64,000 nucleotides of DNA from Anaerolineales bacterium (GCA_019637805.1 JAHBVB010000002.1:263981-327980); one strand, 5' to 3'. Counted from the first letter of the stretch, positions 2,739 through 11,873 are shown. Notes: generated by a model not told the origin, from the letters alone. A program made the numbers and translations.

Positions 2739-2794
2739 GAGTTGGCGTAAAATCGGGGGGTTTGTTATTAAGTACTTCCGTATATACTTGGCGG

Positions 2795-3151
2795 ATGAGG
2801 CGCATATCCTTGACTGAAGCGCACAGGCGCCTTTCTATCCTGCTGTCCAAGCTGGGCGAAGGGCCTATTACGCTTACCCGCCGCGGCAAGCCTGTGGCTG
2901 TACTGCTGGCGACCGAGGAATACGAGCGCCTGCACCGGCTTGAAATATCGCTTCGCTTTCAAAAAACGCAGGATCGCCTGGCTCGATTAAACGCGGACGT
3001 TCCTGAAGATGAGCTGGCTGCAGATATCCGCTCGGCTCGCCAGTCTATAACAGATGGGTACCTTGAGCAATTGCGTGGGTCTCTCAAGGGTGGCAACGCA
3101 CTGGAGACTCTAATGCGTGAGCGTGAGTGGGAGCGTAGTCGGGACGGGTAG
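2795..3151 (+). CDS. Phd/YefM-like type II antitoxin (orphan; no toxin gene recognised next to it)
   Basis: The N-terminus 'ISLTEAHRRLSILLSKLGEGPITLTRRGKPVAVLLATEEYERL' matches the prevent-host-death antitoxin pattern. The ATG at 2795 was verified in the sequence. The C-terminal ~60 aa are charged and helical. Confidence 0.6.
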   Translation: MRRISLTEAHRRLSILLSKLGEGPITLTRRGKPVAVLLATEEYERLHRLEISLRFQKTQDRLARLNADVPEDELAADIRSARQSITDGYLEQLRGSLKGGNALETLMREREWERSRDG

Positions 3152-3229
3152 ATAGGCTAAAAGAGTAATGCAAATGGCCGCTGCTGGTAGTGAGGTGTCA
3201 CAGGTCAAGCTGGAGGACAAAAACTTAAT

Positions 3230-3697
3230 ATGATCGATAAATTTGAGTATTATCACGGGGCTGCGCTTGTTCGCGTCGTGGATGACCCCAGGTGCTATTC
3301 GATAAAAAAGCGGGGCCAGCAGGGGTATTTAGTCAATGATGCGATTTTTGTCTTCCTTAAGTACTCTACTAAATCCCGCTCACCGTGGGAGTTTTCATTC
3401 GATGCAGAAGATGTTTTGCACAACAATCTTATGCAGGAGGAGTATGGAGAGGCTTTCCTGGGCCTTATATGTGGAGGTGATGGTATTTGCGGCTTAGGTT
3501 GGAGCGAAGCAAAAGAATTACTTGGTGGGCAAGCTGGTCGGATTGCCGCCGGCCGCAAACACAATCGAAGCTATTCTGTTTGGGGAACAACAGGTGAATG
3601 GAAGAGGAAGATATCCCTAAGGCGTTGGCCCGCTCTCCTCTTTGAACCGGTGACTGGAATTGAGATGTTAGGGGAAGAATATGCAACCTCAAACTAG
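3230..3697 (+). CDS. hypothetical protein (155 aa), first gene of the Z1/Dcm/Vsr operon
   Basis: GGAGGA at 3212-3217 lies upstream of the ATG at 3230. The 3' end overlaps the Z1 gene start by 17 nt. I could not recognise any family motif. Confidence 0.6.
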   Translation: MIDKFEYYHGAALVRVVDDPRCYSIKKRGQQGYLVNDAIFVFLKYSTKSRSPWEFSFDAEDVLHNNLMQEEYGEAFLGLICGGDGICGLGWSEAKELLGGQAGRIAAGRKHNRSYSVWGTTGEWKRKISLRRWPALLFEPVTGIEMLGEEYATSN

Positions 3698-5693
3698 ATT
3701 TGTTATTGAAGATGGTCAGCATACTAAAGAGGCCTTGAGCGTTCTAGCAGAAGAGATACAAGCTGAAGGCTCCCTGGAAGCTATTGTTGGAAGAGCAAGA
3801 AGAATATTGGAGCTTTCTGTTGACCCGGTAGCTGGAGCTGTCGATCCAAGTTATGGCCTGCTTTACGGACTTATTCAGAGTGGCAAGACGAGCATAATTA
3901 CGGTCACGGCAGCTATGGCTGCCGACAATGGATTCAAATGCATAATAATCTTAACTTCAGATATTAATCCGCTTTATGATCAAACATTACAACGTATCCG
4001 AAGTCAGTTAAGGGGATTAGCTGTTTTAGGAAAAGCGGATTGGAATGATTATCAAAAATTTGAAAGATATTTGCGGACTTCTCCGTTCGCGATTGTTTGC
4101 TCTAAAAACGCTAACCACCTGAGTAGCCTATTGGAGGCATTTAAAAAGGTCGGGGCCAAAGGAGCACGCGGATTAGCCACAATGATTATTGACGATGAAG
4201 CGGATCAGGCTAGCCTAAATACAAAAGCTCGGTTTAATGCAATACAAAGGACAAATGAACTCAGTAGGATAAATAACCTGATAACAGATTTGCGAAGCTT
4301 TTTTCAGGCCAATACTTATCTTCAAGTAACTGCAACCCCCCAAGCACTTTTTTTACAGAGACCTGACGGTTTTTATAGACCATCATTCACGGTTTTAAGT
4401 GAACCCGGCTTTGGATATGTTGGGGGAGAGGCTTTCTTTGAAGATGCATCAAAGTTCCTTGTTTATGTGCCTTTGGAGGAAACGGAGCAGTTGAAATCAG
4501 GACATCAGCCTCATGCTACAACCGCTATCCCGAGGGGAATGCGTAGAGCATTTTTGAGTTTTCTTGTAGGAGCAACAACAAGAAATTTGGCGCAAAGTTC
4601 TGACGCCTTCGCCTTTCTTGTACATATAAGTCATACCCGGGTTGATCATGAAAATGTTGTGACAGTGATTGATGCTTTTCGTGAAGAGGTGATGAATGCA
4701 CTTAATAATCCTGGAACGCCTGCTCATGAAAGGATGCGAGAGGAAATAGGTGCTGCTTATGCCGATATCGAGGAAACAGAAGGAGAATTACCCGATTTTG
4801 AAGTATTGGTGGATCGGATAAAGTTCCTCTTACCAGGCGCCAGCATAAAAACCATCAACTCGACTTCAGATTCGGCTATATCGTTGGATCACGTATATAG
4901 CATTTTTGTTGGCGGTAACAAGCTGGGGCGCGGCGTTACTATTCCAAATCTTATAACAAGTTATTACGGAAGGAATCCCAAATCTCCCAACGCAGATACG
5001 GTTTTGCAGCATGCCCGGATGTATGGTTATCGCGGTAAGCATTTGGGAATTACCAGACTATTCTTGCCTAAAAAATTGGCCGATCACTTTCGCATTATTC
5101 ACCAAATGGAAAAGGCTTTGCGAGACCTTGTTTCCAGGTATCCGGAGGGCAAGTTTGAGGGAATTTATATTTCTTCACCCCTCCGGCCTACCCGAGGAAA
5201 TGTTCTGGATCCGAATGCAATAGGGGTATATGTTGCTGGTGGATATTGCAATCCCCGTTACCCCTTACGGAATAAGGAAATAGCCAAAGACAGGGATTGG
5301 CTTGACCAAGAATTGTTGCCATTTGATGATCGGAATGAATACCACCCGTCGACAATAGATTTCATAAAGGAAATCATCAACAAGTGTAAGCATGATCCCG
5401 ATGAGGGTGCGGAAATGTGGGATATTCAAACTTTGGAGGTTGCACTTGACAAACTCAAGACCCTCAGGGGAAATAGAGCTTACCTTCGTGTGAGAACTGG
5501 GAGAAACCTCAACGAACCAAGGCGCGAGACACAAGGTTTCTTAACGGGCGGAGAAGAAGGTCTTGTTCCTTCTGATGCCCCAACTTTGTTCATCTACAGA
5601 ATTAATGAGAACGACCGCGGCGAAGCTGTTTGGTGGCCACAAATCAGATTTCCAGAAGGTAACTATGCGTTGGCTTTTAGCTTTGATAGGTAG
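3681..5693 (+). CDS. Z1-domain protein with an SF2 helicase-like P-loop NTPase core
   Basis: Walker A 'GLIQSGKTS', Walker B 'MIIDDEADQAS', motif III-like 'LQVTATP', and the Z1 / helicase motif VI-like 'GGNKLGRGVTIPNLITSYY'. It sits immediately upstream of dcm, which is the context described for Z1 (PF10593). Confidence 0.75.
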   Translation: MQPQTRFVIEDGQHTKEALSVLAEEIQAEGSLEAIVGRARRILELSVDPVAGAVDPSYGLLYGLIQSGKTSIITVTAAMAADNGFKCIIILTSDINPLYDQTLQRIRSQLRGLAVLGKADWNDYQKFERYLRTSPFAIVCSKNANHLSSLLEAFKKVGAKGARGLATMIIDDEADQASLNTKARFNAIQRTNELSRINNLITDLRSFFQANTYLQVTATPQALFLQRPDGFYRPSFTVLSEPGFGYVGGEAFFEDASKFLVYVPLEETEQLKSGHQPHATTAIPRGMRRAFLSFLVGATTRNLAQSSDAFAFLVHISHTRVDHENVVTVIDAFREEVMNALNNPGTPAHERMREEIGAAYADIEETEGELPDFEVLVDRIKFLLPGASIKTINSTSDSAISLDHVYSIFVGGNKLGRGVTIPNLITSYYGRNPKSPNADTVLQHARMYGYRGKHLGITRLFLPKKLADHFRIIHQMEKALRDLVSRYPEGKFEGIYISSPLRPTRGNVLDPNAIGVYVAGGYCNPRYPLRNKEIAKDRDWLDQELLPFDDRNEYHPSTIDFIKEIINKCKHDPDEGAEMWDIQTLEVALDKLKTLRGNRAYLRVRTGRNLNEPRRETQGFLTGGEEGLVPSDAPTLFIYRINENDRGEAVWWPQIRFPEGNYALAFSFDR

Positions 5694-6756
5694 AATAAAA
5701 AATTTACTCTTAGTCAGAAAGCCGCTCATTGCGATTGATGTTTTTTCAGGAGCGGGCGGAATGACTCTGGGTCTGAAACAAGCAGGCTTTAGAGTTATTG
5801 CTGCTGTTGAAGTTGATCAATTGGCAGTAGATACTTACAGAGTTAATCACCCCGAAGTTGAAGTCTGGCAGCAGGATGTCCGGCAAGTTAGCGGTGAAGA
5901 TATCCTGAAAGCTTTAAAATTGCGGGAAGGGGAATTAGATGTTTTGGCGGGTTGTCCCCCTTGCCAAGGGTTTTCATCTATAAGGACGCTAAACGGCAAG
6001 AAAAGACCGCGTGATGAACGCAATGATCTTATTTTTGATTTTCTAAGACTTGTTGAGGAATTGAAACCAAAAGTGGTCTTGTTGGAAAATGTTCCTGCAC
6101 TTGCTAAAAAAGAAAGATTGGTAAGGTTCACTCGGAGTCTGCGGAAGCTCGGTTATACCTTTAGTGGAACACCGATGATCCTTAACACCGCAGACTTTGG
6201 AGTTCCACAGCGTCGCAGAAGAATGATTTTCATTGGTAGCAGGGTGGGTGAAATAAAAATGCCTGAAAAGGAAGTGGAAGCAGTTACTGTACGGGCAAGT
6301 ATTGGCGATTTGCCTCTACCGGGTGAAAGTGGAGATCCGCTGCACGATATAAAAGAACAGCGCGCTCCACACACCGTGAAAATGATAAAAAAAGTTCCAA
6401 GAGATGGAGGGAGTCGGTCAGATTTACCTGAGGAGTATCATTTGCCTTGTCACAAAAAATCTCCTAATGGATTCAAGGATGTCTACGGGCGAATGTCTTG
6501 GGATAACGTGGCCCCAACTATTACGAGTGGATGCAATAACCCATCCAAAGGCCGCTTCCTCCACCCAACACAACATAGGGCAATAACATTGCGTGAAGCA
6601 GCTATTTTTCAATCTTTCCCGAAGGATTATTATTTTTCTCTCGAAAAAGGTAAGAACGGTGCTGCTATTATGATTGGTAATGCCTTGCCCCCTAAATTCG
6701 TTCAGAAGCAAGCTGTTGCAATTAAAGATGCTATACGTGCTTCCCGAACTTTGTAA
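5665..6756 (+). CDS. dcm: DNA (cytosine-5)-methyltransferase
   Basis: Motif I 'IDVFSGAGGMTLG', motif IV 'GCPPCQGFS', motif VI 'LLENV', motif VIII 'QRRRR', motif X 'GNALPP'. The ATG at 5665 was verified and overlaps the Z1 stop by 29 nt. Confidence 0.92.
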   Translation: MRWLLALIGRIKNLLLVRKPLIAIDVFSGAGGMTLGLKQAGFRVIAAVEVDQLAVDTYRVNHPEVEVWQQDVRQVSGEDILKALKLREGELDVLAGCPPCQGFSSIRTLNGKKRPRDERNDLIFDFLRLVEELKPKVVLLENVPALAKKERLVRFTRSLRKLGYTFSGTPMILNTADFGVPQRRRRMIFIGSRVGEIKMPEKEVEAVTVRASIGDLPLPGESGDPLHDIKEQRAPHTVKMIKKVPRDGGSRSDLPEEYHLPCHKKSPNGFKDVYGRMSWDNVAPTITSGCNNPSKGRFLHPTQHRAITLREAAIFQSFPKDYYFSLEKGKNGAAIMIGNALPPKFVQKQAVAIKDAIRASRTL

Positions 6757-6757
6757 C

Positions 6758-7171
6758 ATGGATAAGTTGACCAAGGAACAAAGAAGCAGAAATATGAGCA
6801 GGATTCGCTCATCTATGACTGGCTTCGAGCAAAAGATATTCAAAAAACTAAAAAATAAGCGTATTTATTTCCAAACTCATTACACCCGAGTAATTGGTAA
6901 GCCTGACATAGCTTTGCCGAGATCTCGCAAAGCGGTTTTTCTGCATAGTGACTTTTGGCATGGCTGGCGACTGCCCAGCTGGGAAAATGTACTCCCTAAC
7001 GAATTTTGGATTAATAAGCTGAGACAAAATCGAAAACGCGATAGAAAAGTAATTCGAAAATTGCGTCAAATGGGCTGGGATGTTTTTGTTTTATGGGAGC
7101 ATTCGTACAAAAAAGACCCAGATGGATCGATTGACAAAATTATTAACTTTCTAAAGAGCGATTCCCTGTAA
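6758..7171 (+). CDS. vsr: very short patch repair endonuclease
   Basis: 'RSRNMSRIRS', 'GKPDIALP' and 'AVFLHSDFWHGW' match Vsr family signatures. The ATG lies 1 nt after the dcm stop. Confidence 0.88.
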   Translation: MDKLTKEQRSRNMSRIRSSMTGFEQKIFKKLKNKRIYFQTHYTRVIGKPDIALPRSRKAVFLHSDFWHGWRLPSWENVLPNEFWINKLRQNRKRDRKVIRKLRQMGWDVFVLWEHSYKKDPDGSIDKIINFLKSDSL

Positions 7172-7334
7172 AGCAGACTACTGTTTAAAAGGAAAATAAT
7201 ATTACTTGTGGCTTGACTTCAACTGGAGTCTTCATGCTGCATATACCTGCCCATGCTTTAATACTGCTTGGGGCAAAATTTGTGAACCACAAATCCGCAT
7301 TCGGGGCGGCTCTCTGTCAAATGTAATACCTGGC

Positions 7335-7362
7335 TTGACACGCCCGCTCCCCCCAATAGTAT
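7335..7362 (+). promoter_or_regulatory. sigma-70-like promoter motif TTGACA-16nt-TAGTAT in the non-coding island tail
   Basis: TTGACA at 7335-7340 and TAGTAT at 7357-7362. No plus-strand gene lies downstream before the convergent mutase gene. Confidence 0.2.
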
Positions 7363-7565
7363 TGTTACAACTTGCACGGCTTTGCTGCACACCGTGTGCT
7401 GGAAAACGCAGATGACGCGTATCAAACCGAGAGGGATAAATGCTGTCTAGGTCAATTGCCGTCAAGCCATTGCCGGCCCAAAGTTGTATTAAAACCCCTG
7501 CCCCCCATCGCGTTAATATATCTTTTTCAAGCTGTTGGACAGAAATTGCCTGCAGTGAACTGCTA

Positions 7566-7610
7566 AGCCAACCGCTTTTGGGTTGGCTAGGCCTACCGCT
7601 TTTTGGTTGG

Positions 7611-10463: not shown

Positions 10464-11179
10464 GGGAAGTGGATACGTGGGTGTCCCAACACACCTTCGA
10501 TGAACACCGCGATCAGGGCGATCATCGGCAGCGCCAGTAAGAAGGTTGCCGGCGCGCATAGCAGCTGCGCCAGCCAGCGGGCGGGCCGGGCGCCGCGCCG
10601 GCGCGGCAGGCTGTAGGCGGGCAGGTAGACCATCAGCCCATAGACGAAGCACCAGAACGGGAAAGCCAGCAACATGGCCCCGCTGCCGGCAAAGAGGGCT
10701 TCGCTGAGGGTGCCCACGGCGCCAAAGGCGATGAAGACGGTGAAAGGGGAGAGATCATAGCGCGCCAGCAAAAAGGCCAGGGCGATGAAATAGGGGATCA
10801 GGACCACCACACTGTGCAGTAGGATCACATCGAAGTAGTTGGTCGAGGCGGTGATATAGGCTTCGCCAATCGGCGCCCCAAACCAGGGCGCCAGGTTGGT
10901 CATGGAGACCGTGACCACTTCTTCCAGGCAGGCCAGCAGCGTAGCAAAAAGCACGAACTTCACGCGCCAGTCCAGCCGCATGGCCAGCACCCGCTGCCGC
11001 ACCTGGCGCCGCAAGCGCCACATCAGCCCGCCGCCGGCAATCACCCACAGCAGCACCAGCCCGCTGGCCATGCCCGCCACCGCCCGCTCCGCCGCGCTCT
11101 GGGCGCCAAGGCGCATCACGGCCAGGATCAACAGCGCCGCGGCGAACAGCAGGCCCAGAGTGACCTTCTTAGCGTTCAC
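10460..11179 (-). CDS. hypothetical polytopic membrane protein
   Basis: Long ORF with multiple hydrophobic helices and positive-inside loops. No family recognised. Confidence 0.55.
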   Translation of the reverse strand: MNAKKVTLGLLFAAALLILAVMRLGAQSAAERAVAGMASGLVLLWVIAGGGLMWRLRRQVRQRVLAMRLDWRVKFVLFATLLACLEEVVTVSMTNLAPWFGAPIGEAYITASTNYFDVILLHSVVVLIPYFIALAFLLARYDLSPFTVFIAFGAVGTLSEALFAGSGAMLLAFPFWCFVYGLMVYLPAYSLPRRRGARPARWLAQLLCAPATFLLALPMIALIAVFIEGVLGHPRIHFP

Positions 11180-11273
11180 CTACAAAGTCTACTCCGTGGA
11201 CTTTGTAAGCGTGCATGGTAAAATACGGCGCTCTGTTTGGAAGTGGCTGTTGTTATCTGTGGCTTGAAAATAG

Positions 11274-11372
11274 CTGCCGTTGCAACGGCAAAACAAAAGG
11301 GTGAAGCCCTTTACACAGCTTACAAACCAACCTGCCGTTGCTTCGCAACGGCAAAACAAAGGGCGAAGCCCT
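11274..11372 (+). repeat. Tandem duplicated double-hairpin unit immediately upstream of tRNA-Glu
   Basis: Unit 1 is 11274-11310 and unit 2 is 11332-11372. Both read CTGCCGTTGC..GCAACGGCAAAACAAA(A)GGG(T/C)GAAGCCCT. Each holds a GCCGTTGC/GCAACGGC stem and a GGGYGAAGCCC mini-hairpin. Confidence 0.8.
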
Positions 11373-11377
11373 TGTTA

Positions 11378-11450
11378 GCCCTCATCGTCTAGTGGCCTAG
11401 GACGTGGCCCTCTCAAGGCCAAAACCGGGGTTCGACTCCCCGTGGGGGCA
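11378..11450 (+). tRNA. tRNA-Glu (anticodon CUC)
   Basis: The 73-nt cloverleaf was folded by hand: acceptor GCCCTCA/TGGGGGC, D arm GTCT..GGAC, anticodon stem TGGCC/GGCCA with loop CTCTCAA, T arm CGGGG-TTCGACT-CCCCG, discriminator A. CCA is not encoded. Confidence 0.9.
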
Positions 11451-11455
11451 CAACC

Positions 11456-11489
11456 AAAAACGCCTCGCTGAACTTCAGCGAGGCGTTTT
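11456..11489. terminator. bidirectional intrinsic terminator
   Basis: A-run, then stem CGCCTCGCTG / CAGCGAGGCG, then T-run. It lies between the tRNA (+) and the convergent minus-strand gene. Confidence 0.8.
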
Positions 11490-11504
11490 GCTTTCCAAAT
11501 GCGG

Positions 11505-11873
11505 TCAGCGTACCAGGTCCAGGTAAGCCTGGTAGTCGCCGCGCATCATCACCAGGATGATCGGGATAACGATCGCCGCGATCAGCAGGTAACGTTTGCG
11601 CCAGCTGGTGTGCCAAAGGCTGCCGACGTTGAACAAGATCACGCCGATGCTCAGTACCCCGGCGCCCACATTGATTAGCGGTGAAAAGGTGTTGGAGACG
11701 CCCAGCAGCGGCAGCAGCAAGGGCACCACAATGTATTGCAGGGTGCAGCGGATGGCCGTCAGCAGGAAAGGCACCCCGATCACCAAGGTGCCGAACTGCA
11801 TGACTGGCGGCATCTCCTGCGCGTCTTGCTCATGGCGTACCTGGATCTGGTGGGGGGTGCTTGCTTGGCTCAT
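11505..11873 (-). CDS. hypothetical small membrane protein
   Basis: Start 'MSQAST' (CAT at 11871-11873). Three or four hydrophobic helices. No family recognised. Confidence 0.5.
   Translation of the reverse strand: MSQASTPHQIQVRHEQDAQEMPPVMQFGTLVIGVPFLLTAIRCTLQYIVVPLLLPLLGVSNTFSPLINVGAGVLSIGVILFNVGSLWHTSWRKRYLLIAAIVIPIILVMMRGDYQAYLDLVR

Follow-up and report, generated by a model that had tools for sequence, protein, structure and literature searches.

What kind of system is encoded by a compact block of four genes in the genome of an Anaerolineales bacterium? The block lies in a 64,000-nucleotide (nt) stretch of that genome (GCA_019637805.1, JAHBVB010000002.1:263981-327980; the whole stretch is hereafter the window) and comprises genes for a small protein of 155 amino acids (aa), a 670-aa Z1-domain protein, a C5 cytosine DNA methyltransferase (dcm) and a Vsr-like endonuclease (vsr). 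An earlier note on the same DNA had proposed that the block is an undescribed minimal Z1 restriction or defence system with neither a GHKL ATPase nor an AIPR partner. The reading as a methyltransferase-linked restriction or defence cassette is supported here. The claim that it is undescribed has to be given up, because CglI, NgoAVII and BceSIV are already Z1-based systems without GHKL or AIPR proteins and the 670-aa protein aligns over 614 residues with H.NgoAVII. Judged from sequence, the true difference from known systems is the 155-aa protein, which stands in place of an R-subunit with PLD and B3 domains. On balance we favour an ATP-dependent restriction-modification system that belongs mechanistically with CglI and NgoAVII and in which the small protein replaces that R-subunit. 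We read it as a CglI/NgoAVII-like enzyme because of the homology of the motor, the position of the small gene and the predicted fold of its product.

All four genes are on the + strand and are closely coupled. The genes for the small protein and the 670-aa protein overlap by 17 nt, the latter gene and dcm overlap by 29 nt, and the dcm stop and the vsr start are 1 nt apart. The co-directional arrangement and the overlaps given in the earlier note agree exactly with our list of open reading frames (ORFs).

The 670-aa protein resembles a restriction motor subunit

The second gene (3681-5693) encodes a homologue of the H-subunit, a predicted DEAD-Z1 superfamily 2 (SF2) helicase-like translocase of double-stranded DNA (dsDNA) with a CglI-type C-terminal domain. 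The Pfam Z1 family matches the 670-aa protein with E 9e-36, and PADLOC Helicase_II, a model for a 'Type II helicase domain protein', matches along its whole length (324 bits, E 3.4e-97), residues 57-660 corresponding to model positions 42-613 of 621. The same model scores 1065 bits on H.NgoAVII and 689 bits on the H protein of a Pediococcus plasmid, and is therefore built on the CglI/NgoAVII enzyme class. Based on BLASTP, the protein is 30% identical to H.NgoAVII over 614 aa (E 3e-73; residues 60-658 against 41-619), from which it differs by about 20 additional N-terminal residues. When a profile of 32 close H homologues was compared with PDB sequences, the top match was the C-terminal domain of H.CglI (6f1s, E 0.013); this match is colinear and spans the C-terminal 140 residues.

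DEAD-Z1 motors are marked by a Walker A motif with Q in place of G, a DDEAD motif followed by a conserved loop, a motif VI of the form QxxR, and a pair of histidines eight residues apart (PMC5861437). The corresponding residues of the 670-aa protein are QSGKTS, DDEADQASLNT, QHAR and H315/H323, all of which are invariant in the 32 homologues. The motifs that the earlier note had read in the cassette are likewise present (QSGKTS, DDEAD, TATP and GGNKLGRGVTIPNL in the 670-aa protein, PD...FWHGW in the Vsr-like protein). The AlphaFold2 (AF2) model of the 670-aa protein (predicted local distance difference test, pLDDT, 75) contains two RecA domains and a C-terminal domain and nothing else, and Foldseek matches it to two-RecA SF2 motors, HsdR of EcoR124I among them. 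Together these comparisons identify a full-length relative of a known restriction H-subunit, not an orphan Z1 NTPase.

CglI, NgoAVII and BceSIV are biochemically characterised three-gene systems consisting of a methyltransferase (M), a restriction subunit (R) and a DEAD-Z1 motor (H), with neither GHKL nor AIPR proteins (PMC4267653, PMC5737866, PMC5861437). CglI functions with R and H only (PMC4267653), and its ATP-driven translocation is followed by cleavage after communication along DNA (PMC4267653, PMC5737866). The window cassette shares with these systems an end-to-end homologous motor of three domains (DEAD, Z1 and C-terminal), the QSGKT, DDEAD-plus-loop, QxxR and H/H motifs, a C5-methyltransferase arm, a coupled gene directly upstream of H, and the lack of GHKL and AIPR proteins. 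To our knowledge, CglI and NgoAVII are the only enzymes with a DEAD-Z1 motor that have been studied, and how they work, with an R2H2 complex, a single PLD active site and one-dimensional communication, still awaits explanation.

Where these systems differ from the cassette is in the partner of the motor. In CglI and NgoAVII it is a protein of about 350 aa that combines a PLD nuclease with a B3-like DNA-binding domain; here it is a single-domain protein of 155 aa with a predicted restriction-endonuclease-like fold. The gene order differs as well, being M-R-H there and R-H-M-V here (V, Vsr), and Vsr is usually present in loci of the kind found in the window. For a direct comparison we used a locus (L048) recovered by tblastn from a plasmid collection, in which two N. 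gonorrhoeae chromosomes are filed as plasmids. It contains three abutting ORFs for a C5-methyltransferase, an R protein and a 629-aa Z1 protein, and it represents the NgoAVII system because its R protein matches PDB 4rct (R.NgoAVII) over the full length at 100% identity (798 bits). R.NgoAVII scores E 3e-46 against RE_NgoFVII, E 6e-46 against RE_NgoFVII_C and E 2e-190 against PADLOC REase_II, whereas the 155-aa protein matches none of the PLD, B3 and REase_II models and thus lacks the PLD and B3 signature of an R-subunit. In NgoAVII, as in the Pediococcus plasmid system, the R gene directly adjoins the 5' side of the H gene, and the 155-aa gene occupies this position here. The window cassette shows every testable feature of the H-subunit and the methyltransferase of the CglI class, and does not have the R-subunit of PLD and B3 domains.

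A small protein of predicted restriction-endonuclease-like fold in the R position

The 155-aa protein (gene at 3230-3697) is the putative R, that is, nuclease or recognition, partner of the motor, and it has no sequence-family assignment. It gave no match to Pfam, NCBIfam, PADLOC or PDB sequences, and a Pfam scan of 41 members of its family at E≤10 gave no family assignment. Searches of PDB sequences with the single sequence and two profiles returned matches to the ClpC N-domain and SWD1 that we regard as noise. By hhalign, a profile of 101 family sequences aligned to a Sulfolobus solfataricus Hjc sequence with a probability of 0.2%, and tblastn of the small protein against 72,556 plasmids at E≤0.01 found no match.

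The family is large nonetheless. An identical protein is recorded in an Anaerolineales metagenome-assembled genome (MAG) as 'hypothetical protein', an indexed search retrieved 73 homologues, and in a full HMMER scan the number of cluster representatives was 791 at E≤1e-3 and 411 at E≤1e-10; counted at 50% identity, the family comprises at least 791 clusters. Nearly all members are stand-alone proteins of 130-175 aa. These distributions indicate that the 155-aa gene is real and conserved. Two longer members, P0301 (591 aa) and P0278 (313 aa), contain no Pfam domain pointing to a function. P0301 has two tandem stretches matching the small-protein profile, followed by a tail of about 300 residues without a Pfam match, and may be a single-chain 'dimer' form of the small protein.

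The AF2 model of the small protein, built with 41 sequences, has a pLDDT of 91 and a predicted template-modelling score (pTM) of 0.83. When it was compared with the PDB by Foldseek, archaeal Hjc resolvases ranked first (probability 0.99, TM 0.45-0.53, E 3e-3), followed by RecU, PvuII, Cas4, EcoRV and tRNA-splicing endonuclease. The named matches in BFVD were RecU, Holliday-junction resolvases and PD-(D/E)xK nucleases, and the best matches overall in the two databases, all of them PD-(D/E)xK nucleases and phage resolvases included, had probabilities of 0.97-1.0, TM 0.4-0.55 and E of about 3e-3. To this confident model we assign a predicted restriction-endonuclease-like fold with an alpha-beta-beta-beta-alpha-beta core; the assignment is at the level of the fold only. 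Hjc, RecU and R.PvuII, the best structural matches, resemble the small protein in size (about 120-160 aa) and in the order of their elements (helix, three to four strands, helix, hairpin). They differ from it in that no sequence relationship is detectable, in that the small protein is without a conserved catalytic D and ExK, and in that those enzymes need no motor subunit.

Across the 101 sequences, with a mean identity of 29%, G10, W53, F55 and C81 are invariant and K44, P52, D84, G85 and G119 are conserved in at least 90%. K44 lies near the end of the third strand, the place of the lysine in (D/E)xK. D84 is part of the CGGDG turn in the hairpin that follows, and an acid is found at position 6 in helix 1 (E/D6) in about 70-85% of members. 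Migration of the active site is well known in the PD-(D/E)xK superfamily. From the strand topology of the model, D84, K44 and E6 could form such a migrated active site.

Related loci and their gene content

With each GTDB species represented by one genome, a scan gave 37 loci related to the cassette, and seven further loci came from metagenome look-ups. All 37 scanned loci are from MAGs except one, which is from Candidatus Cryosericum odellii, itself uncultured. The loci belong to Patescibacteria, Acidobacteriota, Nitrospirota, Alphaproteobacteria (Parvibaculum), Tectomicrobia, Babeliales, Eremiobacterota and others. Nearly without exception, the Z1 gene of an intact locus lies directly 3' of the small gene, and in about 40 of 43 loci the two are separated or overlap by a distance of about -17 to +30 nt. 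The association holds in the other direction, as three Z1 homologues picked independently of the small protein each have an ORF of 138-151 aa without a Pfam match directly upstream. These patterns support the view that the small protein is an obligate partner of the Z1 protein.

All-against-all clustering of the ORFs of 38 loci recovered the Z1 protein in 37, the small protein in 36, a C5-methyltransferase in 35 and Vsr in 29. Other recurring clusters are antisense shadows of these four genes, with the exception of an HNH family in six loci. As the earlier note had observed for the locus, no GHKL ATPase or AIPR protein was found; neither these nor any other conserved fifth gene occur in the island that carries the cassette or recur in the 38 loci, the rest of the genome not having been searched. 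The four related loci with an annotated gene context likewise contain neither. The placement of the methyltransferase and Vsr genes is variable, and they may be downstream and co-directional, convergent, or upstream and divergent. Pairwise identities of the small protein and H are correlated (r = 0.68) more strongly than those of either with the methyltransferase (0.37-0.38), which fits a physical complex of small protein and H with an independently acting M.

Both loci that have no methyltransferase in reach have a damaged H gene. In L003 it is truncated at about 180 residues, and in L017 a frameshift interrupts it near residue 473, where a sequencing error is possible because the assembly is from long reads. 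The disruption of H in both cases suggests that the small protein and H are toxic by themselves. In about 29 loci, including the window, Vsr is the only other nuclease, and at least seven of these are also without Vsr. No second protein of a nuclease fold is universal to the loci.

Several loci depart from the usual arrangement. The HNH protein, confined to one methyltransferase lineage, accompanies the methyltransferase-Vsr pair and matches Pfam HNH and PADLOC REase_II. It has about 320 aa with two winged-helix-like repeats and a C-terminal HNH motif (L022, 10292-11248; L029, 8469-9449, - strand), so in this clade the small-Z1 pair adjoins an apparently complete conventional Type II system. 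In L020 (3411-9726), from an Acidobacteriota MAG, the genes upstream of the small gene encode a different C5-methyltransferase, a DUF4928 protein recognised by PADLOC REase_II (E 3e-42) and Vsr; an extra gene for a 278-aa protein without a family match lies between the small gene and the Z1 gene, and the Z1 protein has an N-terminal extension of about 160 residues. In L004, a gene for an AspBHI-like, 5-methylcytosine (5mC)-dependent Type IV enzyme (RE_AspBHI_N and Mrr_cat, 10667-11848) lies directly downstream of the C5-methyltransferase gene of a small-Z1-Dcm cassette, where other loci have Vsr. A methyl-directed enzyme beside a cytosine methyltransferase is an odd pairing.

A distant pair is on plasmid5 of Calothrix brevissima NIES-22 (L049, 569-6528) and consists of a 153-aa small homologue and a 741-aa Z1 protein that is 33% identical to that of the window. 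The small homologue was found via its Z1 neighbour and by hhalign (probability 99.35%, E 6e-21). The pair lies downstream of genes for an SNF2-family helicase and a 346-aa protein without a Pfam match, with a TIR protein and a HipA-like kinase nearby. Here the small-Z1 core may underlie a system that does without a methyltransferase.

Methyltransferase and Vsr

The third gene, dcm (5665-6756), encodes a C5 cytosine DNA methyltransferase of 363 aa, counted from its sole ATG ('MRWLL'). The fourth (6758-7171) encodes a 137-aa Vsr-like very-short-patch mismatch endonuclease, with a presumed role in the repair of 5mC deamination. Both identities given in the earlier note hold, with Pfam DNA_methylase at E 4e-63 and Pfam Vsr at E 1.8e-17 (63.4 bits, cut-off 27). 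The methyltransferase also scores 173 bits against TIGR00675 (cut-off 100.65) and is the predicted self-protection component of the cassette.

The methylation site could not be inferred from solved methyltransferases, the closest of which (3g7u, DNMT1 and M.HaeIII) align on the catalytic core alone, or from plasmid homologues, the closest of which (Pantoea, Burkholderia) sit beside unrelated partners. Among the related loci, 27 have a methyltransferase whose target-recognition region is 48-68% identical to that of the window and whose catalytic core is 40-61% identical. That the recognition region is at least as similar as the core suggests that specificity is shared among them. In nine loci the methyltransferases are about 32% identical to that of the window, and at least three C5-methyltransferase lineages can be distinguished by sequence comparison across the loci that carry the small protein and H.

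The Vsr-like protein also matches PADLOC Vsr (E 1e-16), and its score against NCBIfam TIGR00632 (93.1 bits) is just under the cut-off of 97.85. It reads FLHSDFWHGW...VLWEHS, and its C-terminal part also matches MTES_1575 and DUF559. In E. coli Vsr the corresponding places are occupied by zinc-binding cysteines (HGCFWH...C, WEC), and the Vsr of L020 shows the canonical FVHGCFWHGHDC...WEC. The window protein seems to belong to a subfamily without the zinc site.

Proposed mechanism

If the cassette is an enzyme of the CglI/NgoAVII class, the C5-methyltransferase, acting alone, would mark the host sites, and Vsr would repair the T:G mismatches that arise from deamination of 5mC, limiting mutagenesis. 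The 155-aa protein, probably a dimer like other small enzymes of this fold, would bind unmethylated target DNA and supply the nuclease site in lieu of the PLD and B3 R-subunit. The 670-aa DEAD-Z1 protein would bind the small protein, hydrolyse ATP and translocate on dsDNA, and by analogy with CglI cleavage would be licensed only upon communication along DNA. Four elements of this scheme are inferred: the catalytic activity of the small protein, its recognition of the DNA sequence, its complex with H, and the need for ATP in cleavage.

Several observations weigh against this interpretation. The likeness of the small protein to nucleases is purely structural, and no sequence or profile method ties it to any nuclease family. 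The canonical acids of PD-(D/E)xK are absent, their expected positions being G32/Y33 and F42, and one family member weakly matches a NACHT-associated 'inactive REase' Pfam family (E 0.065). A conventional Type II restriction endonuclease (REase) is encoded beside the methyltransferase in seven loci, namely the HNH protein in L022, L029, L030, L033, L034 and the decayed L042 and the DUF4928 protein in L020, and there the small-H pair need not be the sole restriction arm. The small proteins of L022 and L027 are 63% identical and their H proteins 76% identical, whereas their methyltransferases are just 30% identical, which is awkward if the small protein alone sets sequence specificity. Neither the REase-bearing loci nor this mismatch is at odds with restriction as the function. 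Finally, the Calothrix pair has no C5-methyltransferase within 4.5 kb.

Alternative explanations

The absent acids, the match to inactive REases, the conventional REases in seven loci and the tolerance of the small-H pair for at least three C5-methyltransferase lineages would all be accommodated if the small protein were a catalytically dead module of this fold, serving as a sensor of DNA or its methylation or as an adaptor of the motor. Damage would then be done by a Type II REase where one is present, by Vsr or by a host enzyme, or there would be no cleavage and the motor would strip or stall replication or transcription on unmethylated DNA. This is the main alternative, but one that we consider unlikely, given the roughly 29 loci that have no nuclease besides Vsr and the seven or more of these that lack Vsr too. 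Conservation of K44 and D84 in at least 90% of a family with about 29% mean identity is what one expects of catalytic residues more than of purely structural ones, and a displaced active site would be nothing unfamiliar in the superfamily. The toxicity of the small-H pair suggested by the loci without a methyltransferase also argues against a dead module.

A more speculative version of the restriction reading, which we think distinctly doubtful, is that the small protein founds an unrecognised family of the restriction-endonuclease fold with a remodelled K44/D84 site. With its DEAD-Z1 motor it would be a portable module for any adjacent C5-methyltransferase, with or without a conventional REase, and the small-H complex would sense the state of cytosine methylation instead of a fixed R recognition sequence matched to one methyltransferase.

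In MORC operons, Z1 helicases have been found together with Dcm, Vsr and a predicted, uncharacterised partner of restriction-endonuclease fold, 'NRE', described with a canonical E-D-ExK, and a parallel was drawn between Z1 operons and MutL-Vsr-UvrD repair (Iyer et al. 2008, PMC2292703). The cassette might by the same token be a non-defence module for 5mC maintenance or repair, in which the motor and an Hjc-like protein act on recombination intermediates or on nicks made by Vsr where the DNA is methylated. The constant association with Dcm, the frequency of Vsr and the Holliday-junction resolvases that head the structural matches to the small protein are compatible with this proposal. We nevertheless judge it improbable, as the motor is end-to-end homologous to a restriction-enzyme subunit and not to a repair helicase, and the small-H pair is kept in loci without Vsr. 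The sporadic, horizontally moving AT-rich island across many phyla is typical of restriction-modification systems, and the breakage of H in loci without the methyltransferase likewise speaks against a repair role.

The cassette shares with the MORC or paraMORC-Z1 operons and with Mza an SF2 helicase of the Z1 type, which carries the DThhQXuRhFG motif (DTVLQHARMYG in the window), and the association with Dcm and Vsr. It differs from them in having no GHKL/MORC ATPase or AIPR protein, and the canonical E-D-ExK by which 'NRE' is described is lacking in the 155-aa family. It is very improbable that the cassette is an incomplete Mza- or MORC-type system whose GHKL and AIPR components are encoded elsewhere in the genome. 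The Z1 domain is common to both and MzaC models do match the 670-aa protein (PADLOC, E 2.3e-24; the NCBIfam equivalog NF041933, 106 bits), but only in the Z1 segment, at residues 271-482, and far under the NF041933 cut-off of 1500 bits. Over its full length the protein matches the CglI/NgoAVII H family, CglI needs R and H only (PMC4267653), and the 38 loci contain no recurrent GHKL, AIPR or other fifth gene family.

Lastly, the 155-aa gene could be imagined to have nothing to do with the Z1 gene and to pair, as toxin and antitoxin, with a Phd/YefM-family antitoxin-like gene that ends 78 nt upstream on the same strand and for which there is no alternative toxin candidate, but the comparative data effectively refute this pairing: no Phd homologue adjoins the small gene in about 45 other loci (best tblastn E 0.01, elsewhere and on the opposite strand), the small gene is in every case coupled with the Z1 gene, and the GC content at third codon positions (GC3) of the Phd-like gene is 0.60 against 0.35-0.47 in the cassette.

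Genomic context of the cassette

The cassette is carried by an AT-rich island (2750-7610) delimited by profiles of GC and GC3, between a pfk-like and a methylmalonyl-CoA-mutase-like gene. GC is 0.39-0.48 in the four cassette genes and 0.65-0.68 in the flanking pfk-like and mutase-like genes, where GC3 is 0.84-0.88. The profiles confirm the contrast in composition that the earlier note had pointed out, and the island is the sole GC trough of the window, all other 1-kb bins being at least 0.54. It is foreign and horizontally acquired. No integrase, tRNA or flanking direct repeats were found at the island edges, and promoter and terminator scans of the locus gave results no better than shuffled controls.

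At the right edge of the island, abutting the stop of the mutase-like gene, is a tandem pair of 24-nt copies, GCTAAGCCAACCGCTTTTGGGTTG and GCTAGGCCTACCGCTTTTTGGTTG (7562-7609). The Phd/YefM-like gene (2762-3151, + strand, probable start about 2795; Pfam E 3e-12, TIGR01552 E 8e-8) is at the left edge. It is an orphan with a long C-terminal extension, intermediate in GC3; no recognisable toxin partner was found at the locus, and the gene is not conserved beside the cassette in other loci.

Implications for DEAD-Z1 systems

The small-H family shows that a DEAD-Z1 motor pairs with an unrelated and far smaller partner than the one in CglI and NgoAVII. The family is widespread, chiefly in uncultured lineages such as Patescibacteria and Acidobacteriota. 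Individual PADLOC models recognise the H, M and Vsr genes, and there is no REase model for the small protein. Present defence finders probably miss the complete system, showing instead an orphan Dcm and Vsr and a 'helicase'. If the small protein is a nuclease, it would be among the smallest motor-dependent restriction subunits known and a new REase model would be warranted in REBASE, PADLOC and DefenseFinder. The small-H pair would then offer a tractable model of how a translocase licenses a nuclease.

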